From positions 17,112,001 to 17,176,000 of the forward strand of contig CM114271.1 of NCBI GenBank assembly GCA_050084515.1: a stretch of DNA of 64,000 bases, in the 5' to 3' direction. The notes under the pieces are model-generated. The model ran no database searches. It was not told where the DNA came from and saw only the letters and a list, made by a program, of their open reading frames with translations. Position numbers and translations under genes: made by a program. How positions within the stretch are numbered: the first letter of the stretch is position 1; the number at the start of each line of letters is the position of its first letter. Source of the stretch: Blasia pusilla (taxonomy: Eukaryota). This document shows, piece after piece, positions 3,219 to 41,798 of this stretch.

Positions 3219-5830
3219 CAAGGTTGCACGGAAACGGGCAAGTCTGTCCATGAACGGACATGCCTAGCCTACACCCGAGCCGACATCAGATCCCGCCGCG
3301 TAGACTGGGGCTGATGGTGCCCGCACTCGCCTAATCAAGCCCGCCTAATGCTTGGGGGGGGATCACTATATGAAAGGTTCTATATCACCTATGACGTTTT
3401 AGGGCCTAGACCCCCTAGCTTATAAGTGAAATTTTTTTTCTCACCCTTATGTACTTTAAAGGAGTCATTTTTCATTTTTGGTACCCCAAAAATTCTTTAA
3501 GTAAAGCAATCACTTGAAATAAATAAGGCCTTGAAAGAAAAGAAAAGTACCAAGTTAAGTTAATATCCAACATGTTATCCTTACATATGATAGACGGGGA
3601 TTCAACCCTTAATTGAGCAAGAAGCTCAATCAGCCAATCTATAATTTCCCTAATCTACTCCCTCCCACTAACCTACTCACAATTCAACAGTGTCAAGTAC
3701 ACTCTAAGCACAATCCACAAAAATATTGAATCCAACATGTCTCAAACATTAAAAAATCACCAAGATCAACTCACACTCGGAATGTATGTAGTCAAAGCGT
3801 GTAAGTCAACTAAATCAAGTATATATATTGTATCTTGTATCCCTGATTTCATTGTCAAGTTAACATTAGAAATCACCATTTCAATATCAATCCATTGCAC
3901 ATCTATTACATCATAAGTGAACAAGGTTTTGTTGTTACCATGGACGGAAGACTTGTACCAATTACACATGACACGACAAATGCTTTCCTTCTGTACAAGA
4001 GGAGATATACGCATGCCTACCAAGTCTAAGGCCCTATGACATCTTGACCAATGTGTACCATTCTTTTGAATCATAAACACGATACGCCCCAACCAATACT
4101 CCTTTTTTGCAACTCTTGCCTCCATTGAAAGTTGTGTCTCTTTTCCCTTCATTTTCTTTGACTTCGTTGATCTTGTGGAAGGGCCAACGTCTGCTGAAGA
4201 TTCTAACAAAAATGCAATATCACTACCAACATCAACCAAATAAGTCAAAAAATTAGGATCACGATCCTTTCCCTTGCCAGTAGTGTAATATGTCTTTTGG
4301 GCTATTCGAGTTAGCATGTCCTTTGACTTGAAAGGATTGCAAGACAATTGATTTACAAGGGTGGATTTATAGATAATCTTGCCCTCATAAGTGACAGTAG
4401 GCAATATTGCATGTGGAATCGCCATAGTAGTTAGTTTTGCTTAGCAACCACCCTCACAGAGAATTGCCAATTTTCCAATGTTTCTAGAGAGCTCAAAGAT
4501 CAAAATATGAGCAACAAACAACAAAATTCGATTTTCTGATCACTCTATACACAACTTTCCAGAAGCGATGACATTGATTTGAGCTTTCAACCACACATTT
4601 CATGTTGGAAAACTATGGGTGCAACTGAATACTGCAATTGAGTGCTCGTCCGAGGTTGACGCAAGGTGGCATTAGAACAGGCAGACGCATGGTGGCTCCG
4701 TGGAGAAGCACAAGACTACAACGGAGAGATAGCAAGGAGAGGAAGACTTTTTTTTGGTGCATTAGGTTGCAAATATCTCTCTTTCACGACCAAATTTGAT
4801 TCCCCCCACGACAAAATGTGAATCAAAAGAGAGAGAGATAGAGGTCACATGCTTACCTGAATCAACATGAAAACAAGAGGGTAGATAACAATAAGCCGAC
4901 CAAGGCCGAACAATGGTGAACCAACTTCAACAACAAACCGAAACAATAGACATACACCAACGATTCTAAATAAGCACAATCCATCTGTCGAGGTTCCAAT
5001 ATCGCAGGATGTAGATCAAATTGAAAAAAAATACGCCTTCAGTTGCTTCACAAGTAGGTGTTAGTCACCACAGATCAAAGAAAGCTTTTCAACATGTCGG
5101 CTATTCGAGAAGAACTTCACAGAGGATTGATCAAAGCTCGCTCGATCATCAAACCTCCCTACAACCCGCGTGCAACTTGCTTGCAAGTTCCTCTTTCGAG
5201 TGGCGGGTGTTCGTCTTTCCTTGGAAGGTTTTCCCCTAAACCCAAACCTAGTTCAGGTCTACTCAGGAGAAATAGTGGGAAAATGGTTAAGGGGGATAAC
5301 CATTTAGAAAAAAAACTATTTTTTTCCCTCTAAATTTCCCTGCAAAGAATCAAAGAATTTCCTACCTAGGGAGGAAATTATTATATAAAATTAAAATTGA
5401 AATAAATATAACTAAATTTTATGCAAAAAATATGTATTATAGATATTTTGTGAGGATTAACCCTATCTTATGTGAACATCTTCCATGGAAGGGCAACAAA
5501 TATAAAGACCCTATTGTTCTTTTAAAAGCGTTATGGAATAAATTGAACCCTATTGTTCTTCCACAAAACTTAATAAGTCTTCCAAGGGGCGCAATTAAAA
5601 AACCCCTTACTTTGTCGCACGTGATGGGGTATATTTGTGGAAGTGAGACCCCCGAGGCCCAATGGGGGCCACATCCTCCCTACGGGCTTGGTTGCGGGTG
5701 TGGGCTCGTTAGCCCGGATTTACGTGGCGGGCTTGGGTGTGGGCCGCGATTACTTAGGCCTGCATGGACATGTCTGTCCATAGGACAAACATAAGTCTGA
5801 GGACACGGACTTTGTCCGTGTGCAACCCTA
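3219..5830. mobile_element. TIR DNA transposon with 8-bp TSD (hAT-like; P-like not excluded), probably non-autonomous
   Basis: Starts CAAGGTTGCAC (3219) and ends GTGCAACCCTA (5830). Perfect 8-bp direct repeat CTTGTACA at 3211-3218 and 5831-5838. GC-rich subterminal regions with cccg/cggg motifs at both ends. Confidence 0.8.
3766..4425 (-). CDS. 219-aa ORF inside the TIR element; function unknown (possible transposase-derived or captured fragment)
   Basis: Long open frame with protein-like composition in AT-rich DNA, starting at ATG. No DDE motif recognised. Confidence 0.4.
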   Translation of the reverse strand: MAIPHAILPTVTYEGKIIYKSTLVNQLSCNPFKSKDMLTRIAQKTYYTTGKGKDRDPNFLTYLVDVGSDIAFLLESSADVGPSTRSTKSKKMKGKETQLSMEARVAKKEYWLGRIVFMIQKNGTHWSRCHRALDLVGMRISPLVQKESICRVMCNWYKSSVHGNNKTLFTYDVIDVQWIDIEMVISNVNLTMKSGIQDTIYILDLVDLHALTTYIPSVS

Positions 5831-6555
5831 CTTGTACAAACATGTCACCTCCCTCCTAGCAGGCCACAACCAACCTAGAATACACAAGTACTAACTCTCC
5901 AATAACTACACATGTGGTCCTCTCACAAGACCAACTACCAACTAACCCTTGATCCTATGGGTCCAAGTGGAGCCACACATGGCTGGGAGGGTCAACCTCT
6001 CCAAGGTTGCCACTCCTCATAAAGGGAAGGGTGACCTACACTCATAGGTCACATACGACTTCTCAAAATAGGGAAGTACAAGATCCTTTTAAGGCCTCGA
6101 TACAATCTCGTCCTACGCCTTATCTACCATGACAATTTAGATAAGGTTTGGTGAAAAAAAGCAATACAATAGGGCTTCTTAGTACGAGCGCTCATGCCTT
6201 GAATAGCTTATTAAATGTATAGTCTTTTCATAATCCTTATTAATTATTTCATATAATTGGGTATTGATCCTAAAGTGGGATGTAAACTTTTGTTGTGTCT
6301 TTCTTTTCTTTTTTCTATTTTAAATTTCTAATAAGAAAATCAGAAGAAAAGAAAATATGTATTGCAATGCAAGTTATATACTACATATGAAGAAATTATC
6401 TAATATAAAAAATATATAAGAAAATCTACCATCAATAAAATTTCCTTTTTTAGGGTTTAAGGAAGCCTCCCAACCTTCCAAGCAACTATATTCTACCAAC
6501 ATTACTATGAATAAGTACTCCAATTGGAAGATGCAAATCTACCCAACATTCATCG

Positions 6556-7082
6556 TGTCACGTCCTTTAGGATAGATCCATAAGATCTAGTAGAGCGTCT
6601 TCAAGAGTAGTGGAGGACAGGCCTAGGAGGTCGAGGATGACCTGCTGAGGCCCCGGGAACCTGAGAGAGCAGGTTTCCCCTTCATTTTGGCTCATTTGGA
6701 GCCATATTGAGGAACTTACTATTTTAGGTAAGTACCATTTTGAGTATATGATCGACTTTATATTTTTGGTAAGTGGCCCTTGACCTCCTACATCAGGTCA
6801 AGAGCCAAGGAGGTGACTTGGGAGAATAGGTTACCATGGAGAGAGCTTGGGAAAGAGGAGGGATATATATCCCAAGGAGAGAGAGCTTGAGAGCTCATTC
6901 TCTTTTTGTTGAACCTCTTGGCATGAGGCAGCGGAGCTATGGTCCCTTGCCTTGTGAGTGTAACCCAAGCCTCTCATTAGGAGAGTGGGTTTGGTTTGAC
7001 ATGAGAGAGAGTGCACACCTTTGAGAGCTATGATGTGAGATTGTGTAGAGAGAGATTGGATCTTACTTTACAAATAGAGAAT
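6556..7082 (+). repeat. Terminal repeat A1 (5' LTR-like)
   Basis: Matches 16209-16736 with about 10 differences by eye (~98%). TATA-like gatatatat at ~6862. Confidence 0.92.
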
Positions 7083-8576
7083 GAGAGAGTCCGAGAGCTT
7101 CATGGGGGAGCTTGCTGGTCACTTGCTGTTTTTGCAGGTTGGGGACTGTGTTCCCCGTTCAACGGCTCATCGGAGCAAGGGTTGCTTGGATTGTTCTTTG
7201 CATTTGCCAATTTTTCGTGTGGAAGAGTGGCGCGCGGAAGCGCTGCCCAATTTCTGATAGGGATTGAGTATGGGGGCGGGTTGCCCCATGCCGGCGCTTT
7301 TGGGAGCACCATGTCGCTTGCTGATTTTCATTTTTACAGGTTTTACATTTTTGTTGGGAGGAATCAGCGCGGAAGTGCTGCCGAATTTTGTGTAGGGGAA
7401 AGAGACATTGGGCTTTACGACATTCCTGTCAATTTTTACTGGAATTTTTGATTCTAAATATTTTTTGATGCTGGCGTAGATCGTGAAGCTGTGCACGCTC
7501 TGCAACAAATATGCGCAATTTGGAGTTGCGAGCAAAAATTTATGGCCAATCTTGCAAAACTGCCATTGCTAGGCGATTTTTAGGGTTAAAATGTGCAAAC
7601 CCTAAACCAGCCGCCACACCGGCGGCGGCCGTCGCCGTCATAGTCACCGTCAACCATCAACGGTCAAAAGTCACCATCATCGTTCGGCCGTCACCATCAA
7701 AGGTGAACCATCACCGTCAATGGTCCACCGTCCGTTGTCCACCCTTGGTTGCCGTTGCCGCCGTTACGGAGTGGAGGGTCTTCCACAACGTTCGTTGATT
7801 CTCAGACTTGCGTCGCCATCACGTCCTTTGTTTTGGCCGCCACCGTCATCAACTTGTGATGGCATATGACCTCTTGTTATAGTGTTTGAGTTTTGATTTC
7901 ATGCTACTATGTTGTGATTGGTAGCTGCTCAACGACGATCGAGTATCGTGCCGTGACGCCCGTAGCCGCAACGCGCCGCCGATTGCCGCGCCGTGCTGCT
8001 TGTGGCCGCACCGCACCCTCTCGATCGCGGAGCCGCTCTAGCATTGTGGAGCAGAGTGTGGGTTTATTCTTGATTGAGGAGGGTATGCCGCCGAGTGCCG
8101 CATCCCATCATCGAGGGCCGTGCCGTTCGTAGCCGTTACGTGCCGCTTGCAACGCCGCACCTTTGCACTGGAACCGCACCGTCTATCGAGGAGTTTTGAG
8201 CAACTTCAGCATGGGAGGAGTATGACTTGCTGATTGGAGGACTTTTCTCCACGACTGAGTTGGGGTCGAGATTTGCAGTTGTTGAGGAGTGACATTGACA
8301 TGTGTTCAGGTTACCCATTCTAGTCTTTTACCCTGCACGTGTGAGGGATTCTGGGATTTGGGTAGTTTATTTGGAGATACTGGTTGTGTGGATGCTGAGA
8401 GTATCATTTATGTATGTGGTTTAGGGGACATAGACCTGTGTGGGATGTCCGGAGTTGAGGGAAGGTTATCGATGAAATGATAGGCTGGTCGATTTGCCCT
8501 ACCACGCCGCTTATTGCCGCACGTTACATGTCTCGGGGAGGGAGAGTGTAGATCGAGTGTCGCATGTTTGGGTTGA

Positions 8577-10215
8577 ATGATTGAGGGATTACTCGCGAGG
8601 CAAGAGTGATCGGGTGAGAAGGGCACAAGGTTCATCACAGCGTCCGTTCAGGACTTTGAGAGGCGAGGTGGTGAACGTGAGAGTAGCTCTAGAGGTTTTA
8701 CGCGGAGTGGCGTGAGGTTCCGAGGGTTTTCACTTGAGGGACCACCTCGACCTCCTTCTGTGTCATCGTCAGACAAGGGGGAGGATGTAGAGGAGTTTGT
8801 GAGCACATCGCCACACATTGTGAGTGGTCCTACCAGTTGGGCGTACAAGATGGACGACCGGGGTAGAGGACCGCGTAGGTTTTCAAATGTAGTAGGTATG
8901 ATTGAGTTGCACGATTTCATAGTAGAGTTTAGGAATTGGTGCGACTCCCAGCGGGCCAGGAACTCTAGAGAGTTCAACCAGTTTACAGCATGGAACGGTA
9001 TGTTCTAGCATTTAGAGGGGGCGCCCATGGACGATTACCATGAGTTTTCCCAGAGATATGCCCAGGAGATTGAGGCATGGCGACTCAACTACGACCCACA
9101 CTATGTGTCATGGACGGAGCCATTCCCAGATGAGGAGGAGGAGTCAGGAGAGGCTACTTCCTCTTCCACTAGTGATGTTTTGGGAGGGGTCACTCGCACT
9201 GGAGTTGTTGCACCGTCTAGTCGGGTTCATCCCAGATTAAACCCCGTGGTTGAGTTCTTTGCTAAGTTGAGGGCGAGCTACCAGGAGGTACGGACGGAGA
9301 AGTTGTGGAGCATCCACAACTTCCAAAGGTGCTCGGGTGAGAGTTTACATGAGGCTTACACTCGCTCGCGCCGGTTGATCAACGTCACTCAGGGGGTGAC
9401 AGAGGCTCAGGCTATCCAGTCATGGTACGCGATGTTGGACCAGACCCTGCGGCCACCGGTGCGGGAGGGGGTGCTTCTTATGAACACCTCCCCTACGTTG
9501 AGAGATGTTTTTAGGACCGCCAAGAACATTGAGCGCAATATGGCGGAGGAGAGCGTAGCCACCATGGTTCTTGGCGAGAGCAGTCGCGATTTGATGCACC
9601 ACCTGTGTAGCAACGTGGACTCCGAGATAGGTCAACTGTGGCACCACGAGCTCAGGGAGGATACTGGGAGCCTGTGGCACAGGGACCTGGGCCTTCATAT
9701 GCGGCTCAACAGCAGCTGCCTACTTTTACTTGTTGGTCATGTCATGGAGCCCATCATCAGCGCCATTGCACTCGTCAGGGTCAAAGACGTGTGCCTCAGC
9801 ATGGTGGAGGAGATGGTGCTGCACCAGGAGGTTATGTGTGTGACTATTGTCAGAGGTATGGTCATACATGCGCCAGTGTTTCAGTTTACATCCTGAGTTA
9901 CGTTCGGACCGAGGGCCAGAGACGGCACCAGAGCGAGTAGTTGGTCCGGGTGGGCCTAGAGATCGTGCACCAGGTGGTCCCGTTGGGGGACGAGGAGCTG
10001 GAGTGGCCCGACAGGGTGGTGGAGCTTCCCGTGGAGGAGGTAGAGTACCACCACCTAGACGCGCCGAGGGAGACGCCGGACGTGAGGCTGGGATGGCTGC
10101 TCACATACAGCAATTACATGAGCAGATTGCCGCTATGGCATTGAGGTTACCCGATGCCGGATCTGTGGCATCGACATCATATGGAGCAGCCAGAGATCTG
10201 GAGGATCCTGGTTGA
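8577..10215 (+). pseudogene. gag: Gag (retrotransposon capsid/nucleocapsid), disrupted
   Basis: Collinear frames 8712-9008 and 9027-9896 with a gag-like segment (FQRCSGESLHEAYTR). Zinc knuckles CWSCHGAHHQRHC and CDYCQRYGH. The start position is approximate. Confidence 0.75.
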
Positions 10216-10789
10216 TGGGCGAGGTTGCCCACATGGAGGCCGCCGCAGTTGTGACGCGTGGAGCAGCCGTAGAGTTGGATCCACAGCGATGGAAAGCCAG
10301 AAAACAGACTAGGCTTCCTCAGTCTTTCACGTTGTCCAAAGCGATGAGGACCCCATCGATGGGTCCTCATCAAAGTTCCTTGAGAGTTGGTGATGTTGTT
10401 GGTGTGCAGGCACGGAGGGCGATGGGAGAAGCGATTGCGACGACTCCTATTGTTGATGCTCAAGAGGGGCATGTGTCGAGCACATTGTTGGGGGCGGCCA
10501 CCGTTGTGTACCGCAATCCTTTATTTTCTGCTTCCGATGTTATGACATTGGGGGGTACGCCCGCCGAGGCTTTTCGGCTGGCCGCTTCGCTACGTGAGCG
10601 CGGAGTTGGAGTTCTTGCATCATGTTCAGAGGTGATGGACCTGCCCTTGGAGAGGATGCTCGGAGCGTCCACGTCAGATTCATGGCAGGCTGCGACTGCT
10701 AGGATGGCAGAGATGCCCGCTAGACCCGTGATAGAGCATGCAATGGCTTCTCCTGGTGTTGTGTTGTTGGATAGCTGAGGAGAGGTCTT

Positions 10790-11200
10790 CCAATTGGTGA
10801 GTCCTGGAGGTAGAGCTTTTAGTCCGAAGCGGGTCTTGTTGGATTCTGGAGCGCAACCCCGATGTTGGGGAAAGCGTCATTCAGAGGATTGGGCTTGACG
10901 AGAGCCGATGTGGAGCGTTGTCCATTCCGGATCACAGACATCCTTGGATGGAGCGAGTACCACCACAATATATCACCCGACAAGAGGTCGTGGTGAGGAT
11001 TTGCCCGAGACATCCTGAGATGAGTCCGTAGTGCGCGCCAAGGCGATAGTGATCGATCACGAGTCCTCGACGTCTTGGTTGGTGGAGCAGTGTTTTACCC
11101 AATGGGGTTTTCCCTGGATTACTGGGAGGAGTCAGCGTCCTACAGACCAGGATGGCTGTCACGTGATGGGCGCCTTAGCTCATTACCCGTTCGATTCACA
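10790..11200 (+). pseudogene. Retropepsin aspartic protease, disrupted
   Basis: FSPKRVLLDSGAQP with catalytic D-S-G at 10842-10850, followed by frameshifts. Confidence 0.75.
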
Positions 11201-11544
11201 GGTGTAGTGATCGAGCAACGGCCATGAGAGATGGCGATCTTAGCAGCATTTAGTAGTGCCATCACTTGGCCTAGTGATTTGATTGAGGGACATGTCCATG
11301 CAGAGGATACTCCTGTTCCTGACATTTCTATGGAGAGGAGTGTTATGGTAGCTGCATCATTCCGTGGAGGAGAGGTGCCGTTGTGGGGCTCGACTGAGGA
11401 GCTTCGACGATTGGCAGATGAGCATGTGCAGACCGCGTGGAGCAAGGCGTTTGCACCAGAGCATGATGGGTCTGAGGAACACGAGGTTGCAAGGAGTGCT
11501 ACGATGATACCCTTGGATACCACATCCATTGTGTGGTGTACCCC

Positions 11545-12490
11545 GGAGGAGGGTATTCGAGTGTTAGATCTCTTTGGAGGGATTAACACCAGGTTAGTTG
11601 TTGTTTCGCAGGAAGGAGTGCGAGTACAACAGTACCTGTATGTGGAGAGTGATGATGTTGCAAGGCGCGTCTCACTACAAAATGTGGCGTAGTTGCGCCT
11701 ATGTTTTCCCGACTTATTGTATGCGTCCGCAGTACGGGGGTACCAAAGTTCCCTACTGAGGGATATTTCGTTGTTGGGGGTGTAGGACTTAGAACGGGTA
11801 GGGACCATTGATTTGGTCATTGCCGATTGGCCATGTCAGGGCCAATCGAGTTGGACGAGGCAGCAGGTTTGTTGACACTCGGTCCAGGTTGTTTTGGGAG
11901 ATGTTGAGGGTCTTACGGTAGTTGCAGGAGCACCAGTCTCATTCTCCAGCCTACATTCTGGAGAATGTGCCAATCTTAGGAGACTCCAAGTCACGGATGG
12001 TGACGAGTGCTCATCAGGTGCGTGCCTGGATCGGCCCAGAAGTGTTCTTGGATGCGGCGATTGTAGGTTCTAGAGCCCATCGCCCGCGTCTATGGTGGAC
12101 CAACTTGGTGCCCCATGCCGTGCAACAGACGGCGTATGCGAGAGTAGAACGCCCCTCCCATTTGTTAGTGGATTCCATTCTGGATCAAGGTCGTCAATCA
12201 TAGGCAGTGAGGCACGATGATCGACCACCGTTGACTGTGGTCAACATGGTAGGCAGGCCGCGGGCAGCCTTGCCCACGTTTGTGAGTTTTCCCACTTCCT
12301 ATGCATAGAAGGAGGCCAGTCCTGGCTTGGTTTGGGATGACTAGGTTCAACGGTTGGTGGAGCCTAATGCCGACGAGAGAGAGCGAGTGATGGGATTTCC
12401 ACGGGGTGAGTGAGGGCGAATCGTTCGGGCCAGAGGGCAACACAACGCCATGTCTTGGGTGAGGCGATGGACTGAATCGCTTGACATGGA
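11545..12490 (+). pseudogene. C5 cytosine DNA methyltransferase domain (DNMT3-like) embedded in pol, disrupted
   Basis: Motifs in canonical order: I IRVLDLFGGI (11555-11584), II YVESD, III RDI, IV DLVIADWPCQG (PC at 11831-11836), V LFWEMLRVL, VI YILENV (ENV 11961-11969), VIII SRAHRPRLWWTNL (RPR from 12081), IX EPNADERERVMGFP (~12360-12402), X VLGEAMD (~12452-12473). Confidence 0.9.
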
Positions 12491-12899
12491 TCCTCGGCTT
12501 GGGAGTGGGTGAGCGGCGTCGTATGAGATCGCGACGAGATCACGGCCGGTTGCGTTGGTGAGCCCCATGCCCACCGAGACGATGGAGGCGTGGTGGGGCG
12601 AGACCGAGGAGATCTCGCACGAGGGAGATCGAGAGAGACACCTTGGACTTCTTGGGATGTTTTGCATGTACGCCAGAGATGATAGCCACAAAGATCGGCG
12701 TGGTTTGTGCACCGCACGTGGAGGAGATCAGAGTTTGCAGTTGGCTGCAGGAGAGCCGCCGAGTGTTGTTGTTCGAGATGGGGTTGCATCATAGCAACCA
12801 CCAATACCCGCGCCGGAGAGTCCTACTATAGTCACGATGGAGACTTGGAAGCCAAATATGGGCCCTAAGTTGACAGGAGGAGAGCGGCGCCAAATACAT

Positions 12900-13640
12900 C
12901 AATTCCTCAGGAGTTATAGGAGCTGCTTTGCGTTTAGCATGGAGGATTTGGGTACGCTGAAGGGACCGGGATCCACATTGAGTTATCGAGTGATACGCCG
13001 ATCTTCCGATGACCCTACAGGTATAGTGATATGGAGAGGGCTCTGATTCAGAGTAGGAGCCAGGACTTGGTCGGAGCAGGACTAGTGGAGATGTCGCATG
13101 GGGAGTATGCATCTGCCACTGTCATGCCCGCCAAGAAGGATGTGCATGGCAACTGGACGGATAGGCGGATGTGTGGGGATTTCCGACCTATCAATCGGCA
13201 CACAAAGTCCGATAGGTATGCCATGCCCACCCCTCAGGAGATCTTTAATGCGATTGGTCACGCAAAGGTCTTCAGTTCATTGGATCTACGAGCCGGATAC
13301 CATCAACTGCCTATCAGATTGGAGGATAGGCAGAAGACGGCATTTTGGGGCATCGATCCTCATGGGAAGGATTGTTTGTACCAGTGGCGGTTCTTGCCAT
13401 TTGGGTTAAAGAACGCCCGGCTGAGTTTCAAAGGGTCATGGATAGGATCTTGGCTGGTTTGGATTTTGCTAGGTGTTATATTGATGATATCGTAGTCTTT
13501 AGGGCCACGATTGAGGAGCATGAGCGACATCTAGAGGAGGTGTTTCGACGATTGTAATTACATGGGCTGAAGCTACATCCAGGTAAGTGCAAGTTCTTAT
13601 GCGACCAGATTGAGTACTTGGGTCATACGATGTACCCAGG
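12900..13640 (+). pseudogene. pol: Reverse transcriptase (Ty3/gypsy), disrupted
   Basis: RRMCGDFRPIN, FSSLDLRAGYHQ, KTAF, LPFGLKNA(P) and YIDD at 13477-13488. One frameshift near 13418 and a stop at 13555. Confidence 0.95.
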
Positions 13641-14300
13641 GGGCCTTGGTGTTCAACTGACGAAGGTAGAGGCTATCTCACACATTCCACACCATACAGA
13701 TGTGAGCCGTGTTCGCGCATTCATGGGATTGGCGAACTTCTATCGGACATACGTCAAGGGATTCAGTTCGATTGCGAAGCCGCTGACCTTGCTGACCAAG
13801 GTGGATCACGAGTGGCACTGTGGGGATGAGCACGAGCGAGCATTTCAGTTGCTCAAGGACAGGTTGACGTCTGTGCCCATCTTGAGGAGACCGATTAGGG
13901 GGCGTCCTTTCCAGTTGCACATAGGATTGGAGCATGTTGGGGCTTGGAGCAGTGCTCACCCAACATGATGATGAGGGTTGAGAGTTCGTGGTGGCTTATG
14001 CTAGCCGCTTGAACAACGCTGCAGAGGTGAAGTACAGCTCGTATGAGGATGAGTGCTTGGCTGCAGTGTGGGTTGTCGTGCATTTCAGGTTTTACTTATT
14101 CGGCAATCCCTTTACGATCATCACTGATCATCAACCACTGAAGTGGTTGATAGAGTCCGACAAGCTCATAGGGAAGCTTGCGAGATGGGCTCTGTTGTTG
14201 CAGGAATATGATTTTCAAGTGGTACATAGACCTGGGACGCTCAACCAGGATGCAGATGGGTTGAGTCGTAACCCATGCCCGAGTCAACGAGATGCGACTG
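13640..14300 (+). pseudogene. pol: RT connection and RNase H, disrupted
   Basis: VRAFMGLANFYRTYVKGFSSIAKPLTLLT, VAYASR, YSSYEDECLA, FTIITDHQPLKWL, LARWALLLQEYDF, NQDADGLSR. Confidence 0.93.
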
Positions 14301-14599
14301 GAGCTCGATGGCATGGAGAGAGTGATGAGGAGTCAGTGCCAAGATGGCACTGATGGCAGGATTTAGGCATGTTGGCTATGGAGAGCCAGAGTGTGGAGAC
14401 TTCGATGGCGAGGTCTAGTGGAGAGTCCTTGGATCCCGAGGCCAGTGAGGAGACGATAGGTGGCCGACATATTCATGATGATGGAGTAGTCTTGAAGTAC
14501 CTTCGTACTGGCAGCGTCGCGAGCACTGTGGGTGATAGAGAGCGAAATCGGATCCTACAGCAGGCCAGACGGTTCCGTTGGGAGAGGGCACATGTTTTG

Positions 14600-15532
14600 A
14601 GGGTTTGGGAGGATGGCAGAGTACGCGTAGTGCCACATCCTTTGCTGAGAGCACGACTAGTGCAGCATGCCCATGAGGAGTTGGGTCACTTTGGGGTGAA
14701 GCGGACGTACAGCTTGCTCCGTATTCAGTATTGGTGGCGAGGCATGCAGACTGACGTTCAGCAGTTTGTTGCCAAATGCATGGTGTGTGATCGGGTCCGA
14801 GCATCGTTTAATGCTCCGAGTCCACAGTTGCATCCATTACCGATCATGGGCTTAGGGTATAGATGGAGTTTGGATTTTGCAGGACCTTTGCCTTTGACGG
14901 ACCGTCACAGTCGTTATATATTGGTGATGGTCTAGCACTTCTCGAAGTGGATCGAGTTGGTTGCATTGCCTGACAAAGCGAGTGAGGGAGTAGCTTATGC
15001 CTTCCTTGACAGAGTGCTGAGTCATTATGGCGCACTGGCTCAGGTGTTGACAGACCAGGGTACCGAGTTTCGCGATGAGTTCCAGGCCTTGTGTGATCAG
15101 ACGCTCATCGACCATCGTACGACTTCGCGAGATCATCCCGAGGCGGATGGATTAGCGGAGAGAGTTTTACAAATGGTGAAGAGGGGTTTATGCAAGTATG
15201 GCTTGCAAAGAGGTCACCTAGGAGATTGGGACCTCCAGTTGCCCTGGTTGGCGATGGGATACAGATTCAGCATGCAGGCATCCTTAGCGTCTTTTTCACC
15301 GTACTTGCTACTTTATGGCCAAGAGCCAGATTTACCTGCGGCCATTCGTCGAGATGTTGGTAAGGTGTTGGACCTTGATGACCCAGATGTATGGATGCGA
15401 GCATGTTCTCAGAGGGATGAGTTGTTTCAAAGAGTGATGCCCATGGCGTTCGAGAACTTGGCGATTGCGCAACATCGGGATACGTTGAGGTATGCGACTA
15501 TTCGGGGTGGTGGTTATCGACCAACTATCTAG
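14600..15532 (+). pseudogene. pol: DDE integrase with HHCC zinc domain, disrupted
   Basis: HAHEELGHFG...YWWRGM...CMVC zinc finger; WSLDFAGPLP, VLTDQGTEF and DGLAER catalytic segments; internal TAG at 14933. Confidence 0.95.
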
Positions 15533-15768
15533 AGGTTTCATAAGGAGATTATGTCTACTTGCAGCAGACGGCACCTACGACATTGGATGTGATTGCAGGG
15601 CACACTATCTTGAGAGTGCGTTACGTTTTTCCATCCGGTGTTCTCTTGCTGGAGGGACACGATGGTATGGTATGGAAGGACCATGTGCGTAATTGTGCAC
15701 GATGTCACCTTCCTAACATTGATGGTACAATGGATTCGAGCTTAGCAGTAGTTCCTGCAGGCTTGCGT

Positions 15769-15903
15769 TGTATGTTGTGTGGTTCTGCCCGTGGTGCGGC
15801 CACAATGCTTGTCTATGATGGTTGTTCGAGAGGTTGGCATATGGCATGTCTGACGCCACCTCTCACTAGGGTTCCTCGGGGACAATAGATGTGTCCCAGA
15901 TGT
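15769..15903 (+). pseudogene. C-terminal PHD finger of pol
   Basis: CMLCGSARGAATMLVYDGCSRGWHMACLTPPLTRVPRGQ*MCPRC fits C4HC3, with one Cys->Tyr change and a stop at the conserved Trp position. Confidence 0.88.
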
Positions 15904-16086
15904 ACATAGAGGAGATATTAGGTAGGTTTCGATCCCGACTTTTTCTCTAAGATGAATGATAGGAAGACGACTAACGATGGGGCCACATGAGCACCCGGCT
16001 TTCTTGCTCTTAGCGTCCGAGAGATGTATGTCATGGTAGGTAGGGATAGATGGCTATATGGAGTTAGAGGGACCTAACCACTAGCT

Positions 16087-16093
16087 AGGGGGG
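16087..16093 (+). promoter_or_regulatory. Putative short polypurine tract
   Basis: agggggg immediately upstream of repeat B1, not upstream of A2. Confidence 0.45.
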
Positions 16094-16095
16094 CG

Positions 16096-16206
16096 ATTGG
16101 AGATATTTTGGTACTTCTTGTCTCGTTGTTTGGATTCCATGAGTTAACATGGGATCGTACGTGTTTGTGTGTGTGTTCGGTGACAGCGATGTGTATGCGT
16201 ACGATA
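16096..16206 (+). repeat. Terminal repeat B1
   Basis: attggagatattttggtacttcttgtctcg...gcgatgtgtatgcgtacgata matches 16735-16862 (~8 substitutions plus a 17-nt indel). Confidence 0.9.
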
Positions 16207-16208
16207 GT

Positions 16209-16862
16209 TGTCACGTCCTTTAGGATAGATCCATAAGATCTAGTAGAGCGTCTTCAAGAGTAGTGGAGGACAAGCCTAGGAGGTCGAGGATGACCTGCTG
16301 AGGCCCCGGGAAACCTGAGAGAGCAGGTTTCCCCTTCATTTTGGCTCATTTGGAGCCATATTGAGGAACTTACTATTTTAGGTAAGTACCATTTTGAGTA
16401 TATGATCGACTTTATATTTTTGGTAAGTGGCCCTTGACCTCCTACATCAGGTCAAGAGCCAAGGAGGTGACTTGGGAGAATAGGTTACCATGGAGAGAGC
16501 TTGGGAGAGGGGAGGGATGTATATCCCAAGGAGAGAGAGCTTGAGAGCTCATTCTCTCTTTGTTGAACCTCTTGGCATGAGGCAGCGGAGCTATGGTCCC
16601 TTGCCTTGTGAGTGTAACCCAAGCCTCTCATTAGGAGAGTGGGTTTGGTTTGACATGAAAGAGAGTGCACACCTTTGAGAGCTATGGTGTAAGATTGTGT
16701 AGAGAGAGATTGGATCTTACTTTACAAAGAGAGAATTGGAGATATTTTGGTACTTCTTGTCTCGTTGTTTGGATGCCATGAGTTAGCATGTGATCGTGCG
16801 TGTTTGTGTGTGTGTTCGGTAACAACGATGTATGTTGTGTAGCGATGTGTATGCGCATGACA
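16209..16862 (+). repeat. 3' terminal block A2 (16209-16736) + B2 (16735-16862)
   Basis: A2 matches A1. B2 matches B1 and ends TGACA next to the TSD. Confidence 0.92.
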
Positions 16863-16903
16863 ATCGTTTTCATGGTGAGTAAGCAAAAAAAAAGGGCCTT
16901 AGT

Positions 16904-29760: not shown

Positions 29761-32291
29761 CTAAATGTTGTAGGAAGTAACCTTCTTGGGCGTGGCTACA
29801 ACAAGTGGTGCTTCAGGGGAAGCCAACGAGTGGAAGTTGTCGTTCATAAATTTACTCTCCACAATAGACTCGTCTTTCGGAACCACTTCATAACAGTAAC
29901 AACTTTTCAGACCCTTCTCATGCCTGTAACATTCATGATCACTTTGTTTCACCCTCTGAAAGTCCCATACGACCGTGAAATTACCAACCGACACAACCAG
30001 GTGGCGCTCTTGTTTCCCAGAATCTGTGACCTGCAAAATTGAAGGCAATACAAGAGATAAATACACTTGAGTGGCAACACAATCCCATAAGGCCAACATG
30101 ACAAGAACGAATCCAAGGCCTCGGAGGTTCGTTAATGAAAGCAAGGGCGATGATAGCAAGAGAATAGCAGCGTCCATGATCTTTAAAGTTAAGCACTGAC
30201 CTTGTTGAGGACTACGTTTTCCAGTCTCAAAAAAACCAGAATTTGAAGTAAGATTCATTTCTTTTCCAGTCAGATGCAGGATGAAGTGTTTTAGAATGTG
30301 TTTGGGATAGTAAGGAAGCGACTTGATCCTGTGGTTTTTTCTCCAACAGTTCCGGGCAGATCAGCGAATACGAAAAGGAACGTTGGCAATTACACTTACG
30401 TGTAAAAGATGTGGGTATTCCTGGAGCTGTTCCCGGGTAATCCAAAACACAATTGGATAACGTGACAGGTGAAGGTTCTGATTAGAAGGATTCTAAAACC
30501 ATTCGTTATGCATTTGCGACTTTAATCAAGACCATACACCAGGACGTTAGCGCAGAACAGTTCGGCAAGTAGTGAAAAAAACTAAAGTGGTCGAAGAACC
30601 GGGATCTGTAAGGTCAGTGAACCAATCGAACTCGGGTCACCCAAATGTAAAGAATCACTCACCCAGGAGAACTGGCCACCACTGAACGTGTGCGCACCGG
30701 CTGCATGTGCGTCTACAGGATTGAGCTTGAGTAGACGCGGAGCAGCAATGCGACTTCCCATGCGCCCAGTGAATCCCGTCTTGGTCTTTCCGTCCTTGTC
30801 CTTGAAGAGAGTGCTGATCAATATCATATACGTATCGGTCGTGGCCAGAATCCACTTGCCATCATAAGTGACGTCCACATGTGTGATAGGCGAACCCAAT
30901 CCGGGAAACGCAGTCTTAGCCATGCGCATGGAAGTCGTCCCATAAAGACGAACTTTCCCATCCCTTGATCCCACAACCACCGCACCATCTCCCGTCGACG
31001 CGAAGCATTGGAAATTGGTACCCCTAGAGAACTGATGTCCCTCGGTCCACGCTAGAGTGGGACTGGAGAGCTGCTGCACAATTCCAGTTTGCGCTCGCAT
31101 ATCCCACCGGCAGAGTCTATTGTCGTCGAGTCCAAGAAACGTGGAGCCCATATCCAATTGCGACCCTTTGCTGTCGTTCGTAAGGTCCCTCATCGTTATT
31201 GGAGTCCCATCCTTCTCAAATTTCCACTCGGAGACCACCTTCCCTGTACCCAAATCCAGCTGACTTACACCAGTAGGATGCTGTTGGGCACTCTTAGTCG
31301 GGCTCATGAGCATCATGTGACTTTCCCCTCGGATTAGCATCCCTTTCTTAGGTGTTGAAAAGGGATCTGCGGCGTCACTGCCGCTTCCCTGGAAACGTAT
31401 CGACACACCCTTGCCATGTACACCTGTTGACAAATTGTTGAAAATGTCGATACCGGAGTTTCCGATTAAGAAACTGTGTTCGCCAGCGCCCATGGTGAGA
31501 CTTTTTGCACCGCCTTTCAAAGATTCATTGTAAGTTTCTTTGACCTTCCTGCTTCGCTGCTCTTCCGCAGCAAGATGGTCTTCAGCATCCTCCCACACAG
31601 ATTCATCAGCATCTTCTCCCGTCGCCCAGTTCATAAAATCCTTGCCGAACACCTTCGTCTTATTTTCTTCGGTTGCTCTCATCTGGTAGCTATTCTCGAA
31701 TTTGCAATTTTGAAACTCGTGTACAAATTCCTCGTAATCCGTCTTGTTCAGAAACTTCATGGCCCACACACTCCTCGACACAAAATCCACCCGCAGCTGA
31801 TCATCAAAAAACTGCATCTGAAGAGCATCGTCCACTTTATTGGAAACCTTGTCTCCGACCTTCAGCACCCAATTGGTCCAAACTTTTTTACCAGCTGTCT
31901 TAGAATTCCACTCATCATCCTCGCTATCGCCATCCTCATCCTGGTCTTTCACAAACTCATACGGCACCTCTCTTGAGTACATAGTCCATTGAGACTTAGC
32001 AGTTTTGTCACCGGTGTAAAGATACAGTTTCGCTCGCTTGTGAGTCGCAGGCACACCACCAGGACTAAGGGACAATGCACCGAGCTTAAAGCTCAACACA
32101 TCCGCTTTACCCTTTGAGGTACCCTTTGCAGCTACAGTAGGACTAGCTGCGGGACTACCTCTAACCTTCGGAGCTCTCTCCATCTCGCCATCAGCGGAAT
32201 GGAAGCTCGGTGAGCTCGCTTCCGAGCCTACGGACTCATCTTCAGACTCTGTATCATCGAGCTCCCCCTCTCGGCTCTGTGCTGTCCCCAT
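29761..32291 (-). CDS. VID27: VID27 / CYPRO4-like protein (vacuolar import and degradation 27 family)
   Basis: Exon 1 32291-30663 and exon 2 30030-29761 with a GT-AG intron, ~632 aa. MG N-terminus, acidic region, [53 protein letters not shown]. Confidence 0.93.
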
Positions 32292-35200
32292 ACCTTCTTG
32301 CCAAAAAGTCGATCTCTACGTCGCCTGTACTCAAAATCAAGCCCCTTCGACACCCGGTCGCACGAAGAGACACGTTCAGCTATTCAGTGATCCGTCTGCC
32401 CTTCCAGACGCTGAAACCGGACCAGAACGCAAGTTTCAATTGCAATCACTTTGCCTCAAAATCCAGACACTTTGGCCGTTCCACCGAAGAAGACTTCGAA
32501 TGGTACCAAAGCCTACGTCCCCAACTTATCGATTTTGGTCCCTGAACAACTGCACTAAGAAGCCTTCAGCTTAAATATCGTACGGAGCTTACAAGAACCA
32601 ACGCGGTTGCTTCACGGCCAATCTTCGCCCCTACCTTCCAATTACCGCAACCAACCTACAGAAAACCACAAAACGCCCCACTTCCACTACTTCCAGACGA
32701 TCTAAGGCAAACAACAGCAGGCGCCTGGCGCCCGCGTCCCCGTCAATTCTCGTCGCCCCAAGCGTCAGACGAAGCTCGTGGACATTTCAAATCACCAATA
32801 CAGAGCATAGGTTACCGCAACTCACCACTCCCTCAACAACTACTTCGTCTCGTCGGTCGATTGCTCCCGGAAACTCGGCTTTCACCCTGAAACTCCCCTC
32901 AGATTCTATCCGGAACCCGCTCGGTTACTCCCCGACCAATACTCACCCTTCGCGCCTTCAACGGAGCTTCAGGCGTTTAAACCCCTTGCACATTTCGAGT
33001 CACCGGCAGAGCAGAAACCACAGCCAGAGACCACTCCCTCCTTCATCCACTTCTTCGTACCTCCAGCCGACCGTCGCACACACAAAAGCTCCACTCCAAT
33101 CCGAGCCAGGACCTTACGCACTCGCTTCCGCACCAATTCTCGTCCCCCACGCCTTCAAACAACGCTGCTCACGATGATCTGCACATGGAAATCACCGGCG
33201 GAACGCACACCGCCTCCCCCACACGAGCGGCGAGCGGCCTCCACGCCTCCGCGAGCGATCGATCGGCGCAAAGCAACTGCACCAATTCCCTACCAAGATC
33301 GCGCGCACCGCAACTGCACCAAATCCTTACCAAGATCTCGCGCACTCACTCGCTTCCCGACCAATTCTCCGCCCTCACGCCTTCACCGGAGCCTCGCAGG
33401 CCGCGCGCAAAGGCTTCAAACCCTACGACAATGCCACCGGCGCCATTTCGCGGCTCTGTGCGCTCAAACGCACGCTCCTCCCCCGCGGGGCCGGACCCGC
33501 TCCCTCCCGCCCTCCGTCTCAGGAGCGGGAGCCGGAGTGCGATCGGACGCACGACAGGTGTCAGAGTCAAGAAAGTCCGCGAGACATTCTCAAAATTAAG
33601 CCGGGTAAACGGAGGAATTGCTCTCCGGACGAAGATGCACTTCGATAAAAACGAGTGATGGAAAACCCAACGGAAATACAAAAGAGGGGATTCAAAGAGT
33701 AAAAACCTCAAGGCCACAACAGGACCAGAAAAGGAAGAAGGGGGCATTCCCCTTAACGACGAAACTCACCAACAACAGGGACAATATCAGCAACAACAAG
33801 AGAGCTATGAATACTACTAAGTGGGCTTCTAGCGCCGGCGTCTCCCATATCCTGAGCCCGCCGCAAAATGTCCGGGTAAATAGGGTAAACAGGGCCATTC
33901 AAACTAAACCTACCCTCATTGTTGGGAGGGGAGTTTCGAAAGTGAAACGGGTAAATTGGGCCCTCAAGGGAGGATGGAACCGCTCTCAGAGGGGAAGAGA
34001 TTGTGAGTGGTACTATAGCAGAATCCACGTGGATAGGTTAGATGTAGAAGATTTTTTTTTTAATAATCCGAACATACAAAATCTAAATATCAATTGGCAA
34101 ATATCTTTTATAATTATTAGACGGTGTCTCTGCTCGAGTGAGAAAACATCCGAACCGAGCACTCGTGGAAAAAATATTCCAATTGTAACCCGTGAAAGGA
34201 AGTACGAACCAAACTAATCCAATGGCCAAAAAATACACGTGACACTATTTATAATCGCACTCTCTCATAATATTATAGATTGGATAGTGTTATTTGTAAA
34301 TGCAGTTATATTTGACAATTGGATAAGAAGGAAACGTTTCACAATCTATATCTACGTGCAACAAGAAAATTTAAATGTATATGCCCCAATATTAGTCCTT
34401 ACTTATCATCCGCGGCACCTTTTCTCATACTACCTCGTTACACCTCACTATTTTTTTATTTTTTCATACTAATACAGGTAGCAAGAAATTTTTTTGAATT
34501 TGTGTGCAATATGATTAGTCCCTTCATTCCATTGCATGGTGCGGGTTGTACATTAATTTTTATTATTATGGGATAAAAAAATTCAAATTCATGTTTGATT
34601 TACACGTAGTCTTGAAATAGTAAGAAAATATTTTTTTCATGTTATGGACAAGAAGAAAATCTTTTAAGGGAAATAAGTTTTCTTTTTTTTGGATTTGTGT
34701 GAAGCATGTTTATTCCCATGCGGATCATGGATATTACACTAGCCATTTATTAACACTATGTGTTAATATCAAGTCCCATGGAAATCGATAACGACCTGCA
34801 TCCATGAAGGAGGTATAAATTTTATGGCCCAACATCAATGACAATAATCTTCAACGACTTTGAATCAGCATCGTAGTAAACCATAATTATGAGGGATTTT
34901 AGGATTGTTGTAAAAGAAACTTTCCATGGGACTAAATTAACTGTCTATATTAATATGAGAGGATGGCTTCTTGATTTGCATAGACCTATGTGATTGACAT
35001 TGACATTACATCCATCCGACACAATCTACTTCTATATATATTTGGGACAAACCCATCATTTTGTAGGTACCTTACCAATAGAGGAGAGTCATGGATATTA
35101 TGTCTATCTGTCACCTCCTCACTAACCTCCAAAAATGAAAACTCACCATCCAAACCCTATATTGGAGTTGTTCCATGTTATTGACATAACGTAGTTAACC

Positions 35201-35329
35201 AACGAGGAAGGCATATGCATGCCAACTTGGCATCATCTCCTAATCCCTCTCTCCATGCCATCGAGCTCTTCTCTCGTCTCTCTAACTTAGACATGGATTG
35301 CAACTTAACCTATCTACATACTAGTTTAG

Positions 35330-36480
35330 CTCAATTGGACTACGAACCACCTAAAGAATTATACTCTTGTAGTAATGGAACTCAATTGGAAAGCTTCCTT
35401 ATATTTTTTTCAGACTCCATCAACCAACTCAACAGTTGATGATTAATGATAAGCACGCAAGGGTTGTCAAATAAATAACACCTAAAATGTGCCATAATCA
35501 TAGAATAGACCCATGATAATAGTTCTCTACAAAATAGGTGAGGATGTAAACTTAACCGCAAACTCTTTATCATCTCCCAATGCCATATGTGATATTGTCT
35601 TGTTAGCAAGGTCAAAGATTCCACAATTGAACTTAAACCCTTGACATATCGTCGATAGAAGTTTGCCAATCCTAGAACTCCTCAGACTTTACTCACATCT
35701 GTAAGGCATGGGATATGTACAATTGTCTATATCTTCATATGGGAAAACCGAACCTACTAGGGAATATGGCGTGTCCTAAGTACTCGATCTAATCTTGGAA
35801 GAAACTACATTTTCCTATATGAACCTTTAATTCCACGTTACTAAAATCGAAAAAATCTCCTCCAAGTGACGCTCATGCTCCTCAAACATGGAATGATATA
35901 TAATAATATCATCTATGTAATATTTCATAGACTTGAAACTAGGGAGAATCTTATCGATGACCCTTTGGAACTCTAGAGGGGCATTCTTCAACCCAAATGG
36001 TAAGAATTGCTATTGGTACAAACAATCTCTCCCAAACTAATCTATCCCCAAAATATTTTCTTCTCCCCAGCCTCCACCCTTATAGAAAGTTGATGATATC
36101 CAACATAGAGATCTAAACTACTAAAGATCTTTGCATGCCAAATGGCATTAAGGGTCTCTTCAAGACTAGGCACGACGTACCAATTTGACATTGTTTGTCG
36201 ATCGATTGATAGGACTTTAATCTTCACACATTCGTTTATCAATCCAACTACAATACATTTCCTTCTTTGCCGACATGATTATGGAAAATGCATATTCTCC
36301 ATGCATTTAATTCCATTGCTTTTGCCTCCCATAAGTCCTAACTCCTACTTTGAATCAAGTCCAACTCTCTCAATATCATAATACTTATAGGGTTGACATA
36401 AGACTAATATTTGGAGTATCACTAGCCAAATCTATCTATATACCAAGATCCTTCACAATTGAGAGCTACTACATACTACC
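35330..36480 (-). mobile_element. Degenerate RT/RNaseH fragment related to the gypsy element
   Basis: AKIFSSLDLYVGYHQLSIR, LPFGLKNAP, YIDD and LANFYRRYVKGLSSI; heavily mutated. Confidence 0.85.
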
Positions 36481-36799
36481 AAGTCTCCATCATGATGTGC
36501 ATCACTCAAAGAAGAAGACTCGATCTACGGTTGCTTCTTAGAAACCCTAGCCAACTTTGCTACAAATAACCTATTCTGATCTTTAACATCATGCTTTATA
36601 TTAAAAAAAGAATATATGTTATTTTGGCTTCCTTTGCTCACTCAACTCGAGCGGCTAACTAGGAAGTCAAAGGATGTATATCTCTCCTCGTCTTGCCCCC
36701 AACCAATCCCTCAATAGTCTCTCTAGGCAATGTGCTAACTCATAGACATAATGGAATGGATGTCATTCATATCTATTGTTTTTATGTGTGAGGTGAGGT

Positions 36800-40170: not shown

Positions 40171-40179
40171 GCAAAAAAG

Positions 40180-40434
40180 AAAAAAGAAGTTGCGAGTTAT
40201 TTTGCAAGTATTTTAAGACATAATTGTGACTAAAGTGCTATCAACTTTCGAGTTTAAGAAAATATAACTTTTGAGTTGCATTACAATTATAACTAGTGAG
40301 TCCAATTCTTAGGTTTGTGAGTCAATTACAAGTGCATGACTCGCAAAGTTGCAAGTTTAGTAAGATTCTATTGCAACTATACTAAGACTAAGTTGCTGCT
40401 CTCAAAACTTCCAAACTAGCCCAATGTAGTAGTG
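40180..40434 (-). mobile_element. Possible CACTA-type terminal fragment
   Basis: Minus-strand CACTACTACA at 40434, followed by repeated tcgcaa/ttgcaa-like subterminal motifs. Similar motifs occur at 44330-45060. No partner end found. Confidence 0.4.
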
Positions 40435-41699: not shown

Positions 41700-41794
41700 G
41701 ACTTGAGGTAGATGATATAGCAAAACGTATTGTCCAGACGCTAAAGAAGGGTTTGTACAAGTATTGCTTGTAGACAGATCATCTAGGAGATTGA

Positions 41795-41795: not shown

Positions 41796-41798
<3 letters not shown>

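Follow-up and report, generated by a model that had tools for sequence, protein, structure and literature searches.

Split direct repeats in the order A-coding-B-A-B are best known from tyrosine-recombinase retroelements, including PAT, TOC1, Ngaro and SymbioDIRS. One Ty3/Gypsy element has been described in the same terms: in KnitGypsy-Dnmt3 of Klebsormidium nitens the repeats are "the same as that of a DIRS retrotransposon" (de Mendoza et al. 2018, PMC5890265, Fig. 4c legend), which the Fig. 1 legend of that paper gives as A-coding region-B-A-B. The available text passages and supplements of PMC5890265 give no mechanism, target-site duplication (TSD), priming site or junction analysis for this element. 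A search by title or abstract start, with subscription journals mostly outside its coverage, returned no paper on the mechanism of split or permuted long terminal repeats (LTRs) in Gypsy-type elements, and the accessible part of PMC11982613 held nothing relevant.

Two other systems bear on the question. Elements of the Tf1/sushi group, including plant Tcn1, have ordinary LTRs and no tRNA primer-binding site (PBS); their RNA pairs through its 5' end with the stretch following the upstream repeat (PMC7175516, PMC6317226, as far as consulted). In retroviruses, linear cDNA is the accepted integration precursor and two-LTR circles are mostly dead ends, a view disputed for HIV and foamy virus; retroviral integrases do cleave palindromic circle junctions (PMC1905944, PMC1180852, PMC4372172, in the portions available). 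HIV two-LTR junctions arise by non-homologous end joining and may contain polypurine tract (PPT) or primer sequence (PMC5618025, in the part consulted).

An Element with Permuted Ends

The element at 6556..16862 of the window (the whole 64,000-nucleotide stretch of Blasia pusilla DNA analysed) is a decayed copy of an abundant plant Ty3/Gypsy retrotransposon family. Self-BLAST of the window matches 6556-7088 to 16209-16742 at 97.8%, and 16096-16192 to 16735-16831 at 93.8%. This confirms the A-internal-B-A-B layout that a first-pass annotation had read on a DDE-integrase element:

6552..6555, no strand: left TSD ATCG, 4-bp
6556..7070, + strand: A1, downstream part of the true LTR (distal U3, R, U5), beginning with the left att end TGTC
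16096..16206, + strand: B1, upstream part of the true LTR (start of U3), without 17 bp and with a decayed end
16207..16208, + strand: 2-nt spacer, 'gt' in this copy, inside the internal att near-palindrome GACA-NN-TGTC
16209..16724, + strand: A2; B1, spacer and A2 make one intact LTR
16725..16734, + strand: 10-nt PBS remnant at the A2/B2 joint, a putative end-to-end cDNA junction
16735..16862, + strand: B2, probable B half of the upstream LTR, at the right end, terminating in the right att end GACA
16863..16866, no strand: right TSD ATCG, 4-bp

The ATCG duplication beside A1 and B2, the TG/CA ends, the purine tract before B1 and the spacer were all verified in the sequence. The older copy at 42422 passes from A into internal sequence with no B before A (71%), as had been noted. 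The repeat A itself stands (9 differences over 516 aligned columns between A1 and A2), with ends that needed correction: A proper stops at 7070 and 16724, and the extra 10-12 bases earlier counted as A are PBS sequence, kept at the A2/B2 joint by the window copy (1 of 30 loci compared showing retention). B1 likewise holds as the upstream repeat, its odd end and missing 17 bp reflecting decay and not a family trait; the usual B1 end, by locus comparison, is the same as the B2 end.

A 17-bp indel discordant at 18 of 30 loci had prompted the idea that B1 and B2 are inherited separately. This was rejected: the loci had been chosen with a short-B1/long-B2 query, and the short form is sporadic, with 77 exact pattern matches genome-wide vs 1,639 (patterns of 24 and 29 letters). 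Of thirty short-B matches, 9 lay at B1, 19 followed A and 2 were elsewhere; one element was short in both B copies.

The coding region, all on the + strand, reads as follows:

8700..10700: gag-like region, frameshifted; zinc knuckle in the relative L246
10836..10853: aspartic protease motif LLDSGA, by motif reading
11540..12410: Dnmt3-like C5 cytosine methyltransferase (DNMT) domain, interrupted by stops and a frameshift
13013..13770: reverse transcriptase, frameshifted (PF00078)
13822..14230: RNase H, frameshifted (PF17917, E 3e-31)
14642..15530: integrase, comprising an H2C2 zinc finger and an rve core that keeps its D, D and E; one in-frame stop
15769..15903: PHD finger at the integrase C-terminus (PF00628)

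The order gag-PR-RT-RH-INT with a DDE integrase is that of Ty3/Gypsy, the protease standing at motif level in the window; Pfam searches of the gag region and protease of this copy gave no match. TG...CA ends with a short TSD, and a PBS after and PPT before the repeats, are also Ty3/Gypsy features. Pfam matched no chromodomain at the integrase C-terminus, where the PHD finger lies instead. A six-frame Pfam search of the element, and one of three ORFs from the near-intact L246, gave no tyrosine-recombinase family. The element shares split direct repeats, and probably a joined intermediate, with the PAT/TOC1/Ngaro and SymbioDIRS elements, but differs from them in its DDE integrase, TG/CA ends, 4-bp TSD and PPT.

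The Dnmt3-related DNMT lies inside Pol, as in Gypsy-Dnmt3 elements. Its assignment comes from comparisons with relatives, the N-terminal DNMT piece in the window having no Pfam match: the window domain aligns at 64% to an intact relative, which itself matches DNMT3A at E 2e-11. Homologues are annotated by name in Marchantia, Calypogeia and Sphagnum; no named K. nitens sequence is among the homologue matches listed. Annotation has taken Pol fragments of the family for DNA-methyltransferase-like genes of the host. By ARAGORN, the window contains no tRNA gene.

Gypsy domains, DNMT in Pol and repeat order all agree with the published description of KnitGypsy-Dnmt3. The premise that split direct repeats are foreign to DDE Gypsy elements was wrong (PMC5890265, Fig. 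4c legend). A point of difference is that the present family is very abundant. The layout was already noted in that one figure legend, and what is new is genomic sequence evidence bearing on the route.

A Family-Wide Layout

The Blasia pusilla genome contains at least about 800 family 3' ends, with copies on many contigs. All 40 scored matches cover internal-B-A-B, for a query that itself had that shape. A query without this layout bias found B in front of none of 30 A+internal 5' ends. Comparing the ends of genomic copies, as the first-pass annotation had proposed, therefore shows the permuted layout family-wide and not A+B LTRs at both ends; lacking two complete identical end LTRs, the element is a variant and not a canonical Ty3/Gypsy member. 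Among 30 PPT-B sites taken in genome order, A follows 27, and B then follows 26 of these. Two PPT-B sites, L166 and L175, have no A after them. A third such site, L091, belongs to an A-internal-B copy whose TSD is exact and whose 5' end is plain A1; it is not a mirror form. L067 was left out of the junction and self-primer tables; its BLAST rows show no adjoining B.

TSDs of 14 other paired copies were exact 4-bp duplications in 7, had one mismatch in 3 and were absent in 3, with 1 uninformative. Just 5 of 17 5' regions of remnant-bearing or internal-B copies contained an A1 end (exact TSD 2, near TSD 1, none 2). The NCGN target preference of REXdb Phygy (PMC6317226, as far as consulted) is not seen: ATCG has no C at 2 and G at 3, and other exact TSDs varied.

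The family is transcribed: three raw Blasia pusilla RNA runs hold 4,811-5,107 matching reads, mostly 90-95% alike and in one orientation, a result at the level of the family. RNA joints running from 16862 to 6556 were considered as circle junctions and rejected; with the 2-nt spacer present, they are most plausibly B1/A2 joints of other copies. A one-off rearrangement or assembly artefact is refuted by the hundreds of copies on many contigs, their TSDs, metagenome relatives assembled independently with the same layout, and RNA reads that contain B-spacer-A joints.

The LTR Is B Plus A

The repeat produced by reverse transcription is, by its flanking signals, evidently B+2 nt+A: the PPT precedes B, the self-priming site follows A, and the halves co-vary. 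The signals are:

6860..6873, + strand: TATA-like box about 30 nt before the putative transcription start, by motif reading
6894..6909, + strand: putative RNA 5' end and self-primer, complementary to the sequence directly after A1
7071..7085, + strand: non-tRNA PBS, with one private substitution at 7075
16086..16095, + strand: PPT, abutting B1

The spacing of the TATA-like box is the same in a metagenome family. The self-primer is intact in A2 (16548-16563) and has one substitution in A1. The window copy's own PBS pairs over just 6 nt; RNA reads of other copies have the family base at 7075. Family-wide, the complement extends at least 12 nt in 21 of 29 copies, against at most 9 nt across 580 control positions, and it is conserved in another family, unlike this one in sequence (17, 12, 11 and 10 nt at 4 loci). 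At sequence level this is the complementarity of the Tf1/sushi/Tcn1 group, given the predicted RNA start, with a self-primer of up to 16-17 nt vs 11 nt in Tf1 (PMC7175516, PMC6317226, in the passages available). The permuted LTR, DNMT and PHD finger, and the missing chromodomain match, set the present element apart from that group. The RNA 5' region of the decayed window copy folded with z -1.59. The exact PPT-B pattern has 800 matches in the genome.

Private variants at positions 24 to 493 are common to A1 and A2 in 13 paired copies. For B variants, 8 of 9 carriers in one case and 5 of 6 in another show the variant in both B1 and B2. This indicates that both members of each pair come from one template. 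Such whole-length sharing tells against a two-step origin, in which integration of a small circle made of the LTR alone would first leave a solo A-B unit, whose A part would then receive a one-LTR circle by recombination. Solo A-B units with exact 4-bp TSDs do exist (L114, L128, L105, L097; six places in the context check), and polarity would be built in, but ordinary A1/A2 recombination explains the solos, and recombination in B would yield a mirror form that is absent. This improbable origin is already largely refuted.

The integrase ends TGTC...GACA sit inside the B+2 nt+A repeat as a near-palindrome. The spacer measures 2 nt in 84 of 85 B-A joints and is GC, AC, GT or AT in 82; only 25 of the 85 have GC, so a perfect att palindrome would be the ancestral state.

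The A2/B2 Joint

At the A2/B2 joint, 21 loci form a ladder of PBS lengths and 15 a ladder of PPT lengths; some of the 15 also have filler bases, and one locus has both remnants. At L198/L215 the order is PBS then PPT, and fillers at L199 and L213 repeat nearby element sequence. A never follows the B of a remnant joint (0 of 35 distinct places). Full internal-B-NN-A-joint-B ends are present at 8 of 21 PBS-remnant and 8 of 15 PPT-remnant loci, and L211 is a full element with PPT remnant and filler at the joint and an exact TSD. The context check ruled out internal deletion as the source of primer remnants in full 3' ends; in solo A-B units such an origin may still apply.

Joint type changes 19 times on the A tree vs 18.8 when shuffled. 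B2 substitutions change 7 times vs 22.5 and 6 vs 19.5, with none of 300 shuffles as low. Joint type is thus not heritable, and B2 substitutions are. Taken together, the five joint classes show slight clustering (47 changes vs 52.7; 5 of 200 shuffles as low), on a weakly resolved tree with 12 of 102 branches well supported. As judged from these genomic copies, the A2/B2 joint is not inherited, and its remnants resemble retroviral two-LTR-circle junctions. Replication of the DIRS/PAT/Ngaro type, with RNA spanning A1 to B2, ends restored from the B1/A2 joint and integrase replacing tyrosine recombinase, would give the same repeat layout (PMC5890265, Fig. 1 and Fig. 4 legends). It should also give an inherited, remnant-free A2/B2 joint, and neither is observed; moreover, PPT and PBS are placed as a B-NN-A LTR requires. 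Such replication is very improbable.

A Probable Route: Join, Then Open

These observations point to a model, which we consider probable, in which a Gypsy-Dnmt3 element reverse-transcribes conventionally with att sites inside its LTR, its cDNA ends are joined, and integrase then opens the upstream LTR. RNA would start about 340 nt into A1, end in A2, and self-prime as in Tf1. Reverse transcription would yield a linear [B-NN-A]-PBS-internal-PPT-[B-NN-A], in keeping with where PPT and PBS are observed and with the co-variation of the repeats. TG/CA would be missing from the ends of this molecule (ATTGG..., ...CTTTA). Error-prone joining of the two ends, presumably by a host enzyme, would create the A/B joint, with primer remnants wherever RNase H was unfinished. 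Integrase would cut GACA-NN-TGTC of the upstream LTR after each CA, leaving two CA-3'OH ends with 2-nt 5' overhangs, and insertion of these with a 4-bp duplication would give the observed A-internal-B-NN-A-B. B2 would be a by-product bearing the right att end, and just B1-NN-A2 would be transmitted. We infer circle, cDNA end and transcription start alike from genomic sequence, the closed circle as such from joint anatomy.

DDE enzymes of the IS3 and IS30 families open circles where two ends abut across a short spacer. Those are bacterial DNA transposons whose circle is made by transposase, with no reverse transcription, unlike the present element. The two-LTR circles of HIV-1 and foamy virus, in the reports as far as consulted, share end-joined junctions with primer remnants and an integrase able to cut a palindromic att-att duplex. 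In those viruses circles arise off the main path, and the palindrome is formed where the two LTR ends meet. The present element encodes its palindrome within the LTR and has no att at the end-to-end joint, and its standard product is permuted. The first-pass suggestion of a B+A unit integrated in circular permutation gains support from the family-wide layout, A1/A2 and B1/B2 co-variation, PBS/PPT remnants and the non-heritable A2/B2 joint.

Polarity is the difficulty. Two equal att sites of a symmetric circle would predict the mirror product A-B-NN-A-internal-B, found at 0 of 717 A-B joints (9 matched a following A-start motif, none A-B-A-internal). A symmetric circle does not account for this strict use of the upstream LTR. 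It is pure conjecture that the element's Dnmt3-like enzyme marks one LTR and so sets which att is cut.

The upstream att lies 128 bp from the DNA end and the downstream att 516 bp, a difference that could give polarity if integrase cut first. It would cut the upstream internal att in linear cDNA and insert both new ends, one of them on a 128-bp B fragment, and the host would repair the A-end/B-start break in the chromosome, with a free circle unneeded. This unlikely alternative predicts the same product, primer remnants and fillers, and the order of steps is not readable from genomic sequence; yet each insertion would be a chromosomal double-strand break, and 74 of 83 sampled joints are clean (blunt or 1-nt overlap). 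A shade less likely still, reverse transcriptase itself might make the joint, the finishing plus strand jumping end-to-end onto the minus-strand 3' end and recopying B, and integrase processing the lariat-like form. The jump would place PBS before PPT as at L198/L215, is one-directional if the plus strand alone jumps, and suits the fillers that copy nearby element sequence. No reason was found barring a minus-strand jump, however, and fillers of up to about 15 nt are also compatible with host end joining. Polymerase-theta joints can hold fillers of such length.

Implications

By a slight balance of probability, joining before opening defines a bryophyte-wide lineage in which end-joining of cDNA into a two-LTR circle is obligatory for integration. 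Att sites would have moved into U3, so that every inserted copy keeps its own circle junction, and the layout would be convergent on that of tyrosine-recombinase elements with the DDE integrase kept. LTR finders of the kind that depends on two full LTRs, TG/CA ends and a TSD (PMC6317226, in the part available) should miss or miscut the family.

If the model is true, a family whose every insertion passes through an end-joined form would be a natural counter-example to the linear-precursor rule, and primer removal and end joining could be studied directly in the hundreds of copies that the genome already contains. The Marchantia polymorpha homologues would make the question testable in a model plant, if their copies share these ends.

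Repeat Layout in the Window and the Family

The element is a decayed Ty3/Gypsy copy with repeats arranged A-internal-B-A-B. It lies in the window as follows:

6556-16862, plus strand: whole element
6556-7070, plus strand: A1
16096-16206, plus strand: B1
16209-16724, plus strand: A2
16735-16862, plus strand: B2
310-651: ancient decayed A-B unit belonging to this lineage, with 67-70% identity; probably solo or a 3' end
29761-32315, minus strand: host gene that encodes DUF7135 and VID27 C-terminal WD40-like domains
35219-41801, mainly minus strand: nested, decayed reverse transcriptase, RNase H and integrase pieces from a related subfamily that share 68-82% identity with the element

Stops and frameshifts in the coding region show this copy to be dead. 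Re-inspection bore out the positions given in the first-pass annotation for the repeats, the TG/CA ends, the ATCG duplication, the purine tract and the two-nucleotide spacer. The annotated start of A likewise stands but its end does not: A stops at 7070 and 16724, and the surplus bases are primer-binding site. In an older copy at 42422, A lacks a preceding B and passes straight into internal sequence, as had been claimed.

The A-internal-B-A-B layout is a real, standard feature of a large family. In a genome search with the 3' end as query, internal-B-A-B was covered by 40 of 40 scored matches and present in 30 of 30 loci inspected, although that query itself has this shape and biases the search towards it. 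Checks free of that bias gave the same picture. B preceded A at none of 30 A+internal 5' ends. Polypurine tract (PPT)-B sites taken in genome order continued into A in 27 of 30 cases, and 26 of those 27 then into B. Exact-pattern counts, which are lower bounds, gave 800 PPT-B sites genome-wide (564 followed by two bases and the A-start motif) and 717 A-B joints.

The A1 end was present in 14 of 20 upstream regions retrieved; the 4-bp target site duplication (TSD) of these 14 copies was exact in seven, had one mismatch in three, was absent in three, and was unreadable in one. Solo A-B units carrying 4-bp TSDs also occur in the genome; a solo unit followed by later recombination fits poorly as the source of the layout, and is very unlikely.

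Variant copies were seen as well. One locus (G000:C1:3150186-3153214) reads internal-B-GC-A-internal, a tandem pair with one true LTR in common. Copies at L091/L331, L026, and L277 stop at internal-B, without A2-B2; L091 has a plain A1 end and an exact TSD. Such copies arose by recombination between B1 and B2 or, alternatively, from a one-LTR circle that was used directly. Across the family, loss of 17 bp between a pair of 8-bp direct repeats has recurred independently in B, affecting B1 or B2.

The True LTR

The PPT directly adjoins B1. Sequence just 3' of A1 is not tRNA-type; instead, it complements sequence lying about 30 nt past a TATA-like box within A. This complementarity spans at least 16 nt in 15 of 29 copies and at least 12 nt in 21 of 29, against at most 9 nt across 580 control positions. 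The relation is kept in a metagenome family whose repeats differ in sequence (17, 12, 11, and 10 nt at four loci; 0-4 of 2,000 shuffles). The arrangement is that described for Tf1 self-priming (PMC7175516). In 13 paired copies, A1 and A2 have private variants in common along their length: identity within a copy is higher than the average to other copies in all 13, and higher than to the single best other copy in eight. B1 and B2 likewise share variants. Together, the PPT at B1, the self-primer after A1, and the shared variants suggest that reverse transcriptase makes B-NN-A (NN, the spacer) twice. Its product would then have B-NN-A at both ends, and those ends would lack TG/CA.

The integrase (att) ends lie inside B-NN-A, as GACA-NN-TGTC. 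The spacer is 2 nt in 84 of 85 joints (GC 25, AC 25, GT 19, AT 13); AC, GT, and AT may be deamination products of GC in CHG context.

The A2|B2 Joint

Among 83 joints chosen without regard to oddity, 48 show a 1-nt overlap, 26 are blunt, and nine are other. Genome-wide patterns revealed ladders of primer-binding-site sequence at 21 joints and of PPT sequence at 15, with filler bases in some; one remnant joint holds both sequences, and the window copy's joint retains 10 nt. The joint resembles HIV two-LTR junctions, which are described as formed by NHEJ and as able to contain PPT or primer sequence (PMC5618025). An origin as internal deletions is ruled out for remnant joints in full 3' ends, because no A follows the joint's B at any of 35 distinct remnant places (including two pairs resembling segmental duplicates), and 16 of these have full internal-B-NN-A-joint-B ends. 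In one remnant-bearing element, both ends are flanked by an exact TSD; the A1 end was present in only 5 of 17 retrieved regions.

On a weakly resolved tree of 105 A repeats, blunt or overlap state is clustered no more than in shuffles (198 of 300 score as low). Two B2 substitution markers, by contrast, are strongly clustered (0 of 300). This contrast indicates that the joint arises afresh at every transposition.

A Proposed Route

The route we consider probable has four steps: linear cDNA would be made; its ends would be joined into a two-LTR circle; integrase would cut the internal att of the upstream LTR; and insertion would follow with a 4-bp duplication. Cutting after each CA would leave ends processed in the usual way, each with a 2-nt 5' overhang. 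Palindromic att-att junctions are described as cleavable by retroviral integrases (PMC1905944, PMC1180852, PMC4372172).

The chief result against this route is polarity: the mirror form is absent. An exact-pattern genome search found no A-B-A-internal among 717 A-B joints; the A-start motif follows the joint in nine of the 717, with real A sequence in two. The integrase cut may instead precede joining, an unlikely order that yields the same product and may account for the polarity bias. An end-to-end jump by reverse transcriptase could also make the joint; its product is again identical and the bias may follow from it, but we regard it as quite unlikely. The order of the cutting, joining, and jumping steps lies beyond the reach of genomic sequence. 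A DIRS-like route fits poorly and is highly improbable.

Coding Content, Relatives, and Expression

In the element's six frames, Pfam identifies reverse transcriptase, RNase H and a PHD finger, along with the zinc finger and core of integrase; it finds no tyrosine recombinase there.

A C5 methyltransferase is located between the protease motif and reverse transcriptase. Its Pfam match in the window is weak (E 0.007), and it is 64% identical to that of an intact metagenome relative, whose top solved relatives are DNMT3A (E 2e-11) and then HhaI (1e-3). The organisms with named homologues are Marchantia polymorpha, Calypogeia fissa, and Sphagnum fallax, so the host is probably a bryophyte. Many Marchantia gene models (P0121-P0138) are Pol fragments of this lineage with PF00145, one of them labelled DNA cytosine methyltransferase by a source.

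The element's domain order recurs among the 34 metagenome loci inspected (those of at least 6 kb, from 69 found). One (L258) is a complete A-internal-B-GC-A-B with duplication AAGG, and the B-NN-A joint was seen at seven metagenome loci. A third family (L280:15299-15951), with unrelated repeat sequence, reads PPT-B(157)-GT-A-B with joint CATGACA/TGTCATG.

Reads from three RNA runs (same species label) align along the element in a single orientation, increasing towards the 3' end. Most are 90-95% identical to it, so these come from other copies. Loose read ends at 16060-16096 show that a sister subfamily is expressed, one with an identical PPT and a different B start, which resembles that of the metagenome family.

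Precedents

According to a figure legend, KnitGypsy-Dnmt3 has DIRS-type repeats and Gypsy domains (de Mendoza et al. 2018, Fig. 4c; PMC5890265); a 2026 preprint mentions 'Gypsy-DNMT3' in streptophytes (10.64898/2026.05.21.726589). The literature searched, with most subscription journals outside its scope, yielded no account of how the A-internal-B-A-B layout originates. In the active, PHD-bearing Chlamydomonas element Gypsy-7a_cRei, the right LTR's last 8 bp are missing from the left LTR (PMC9940879, Fig. 6 legend), possibly a miniature of the permutation described here. The layout was already known from one figure legend; as far as searched, the evidence bearing on its route is new.
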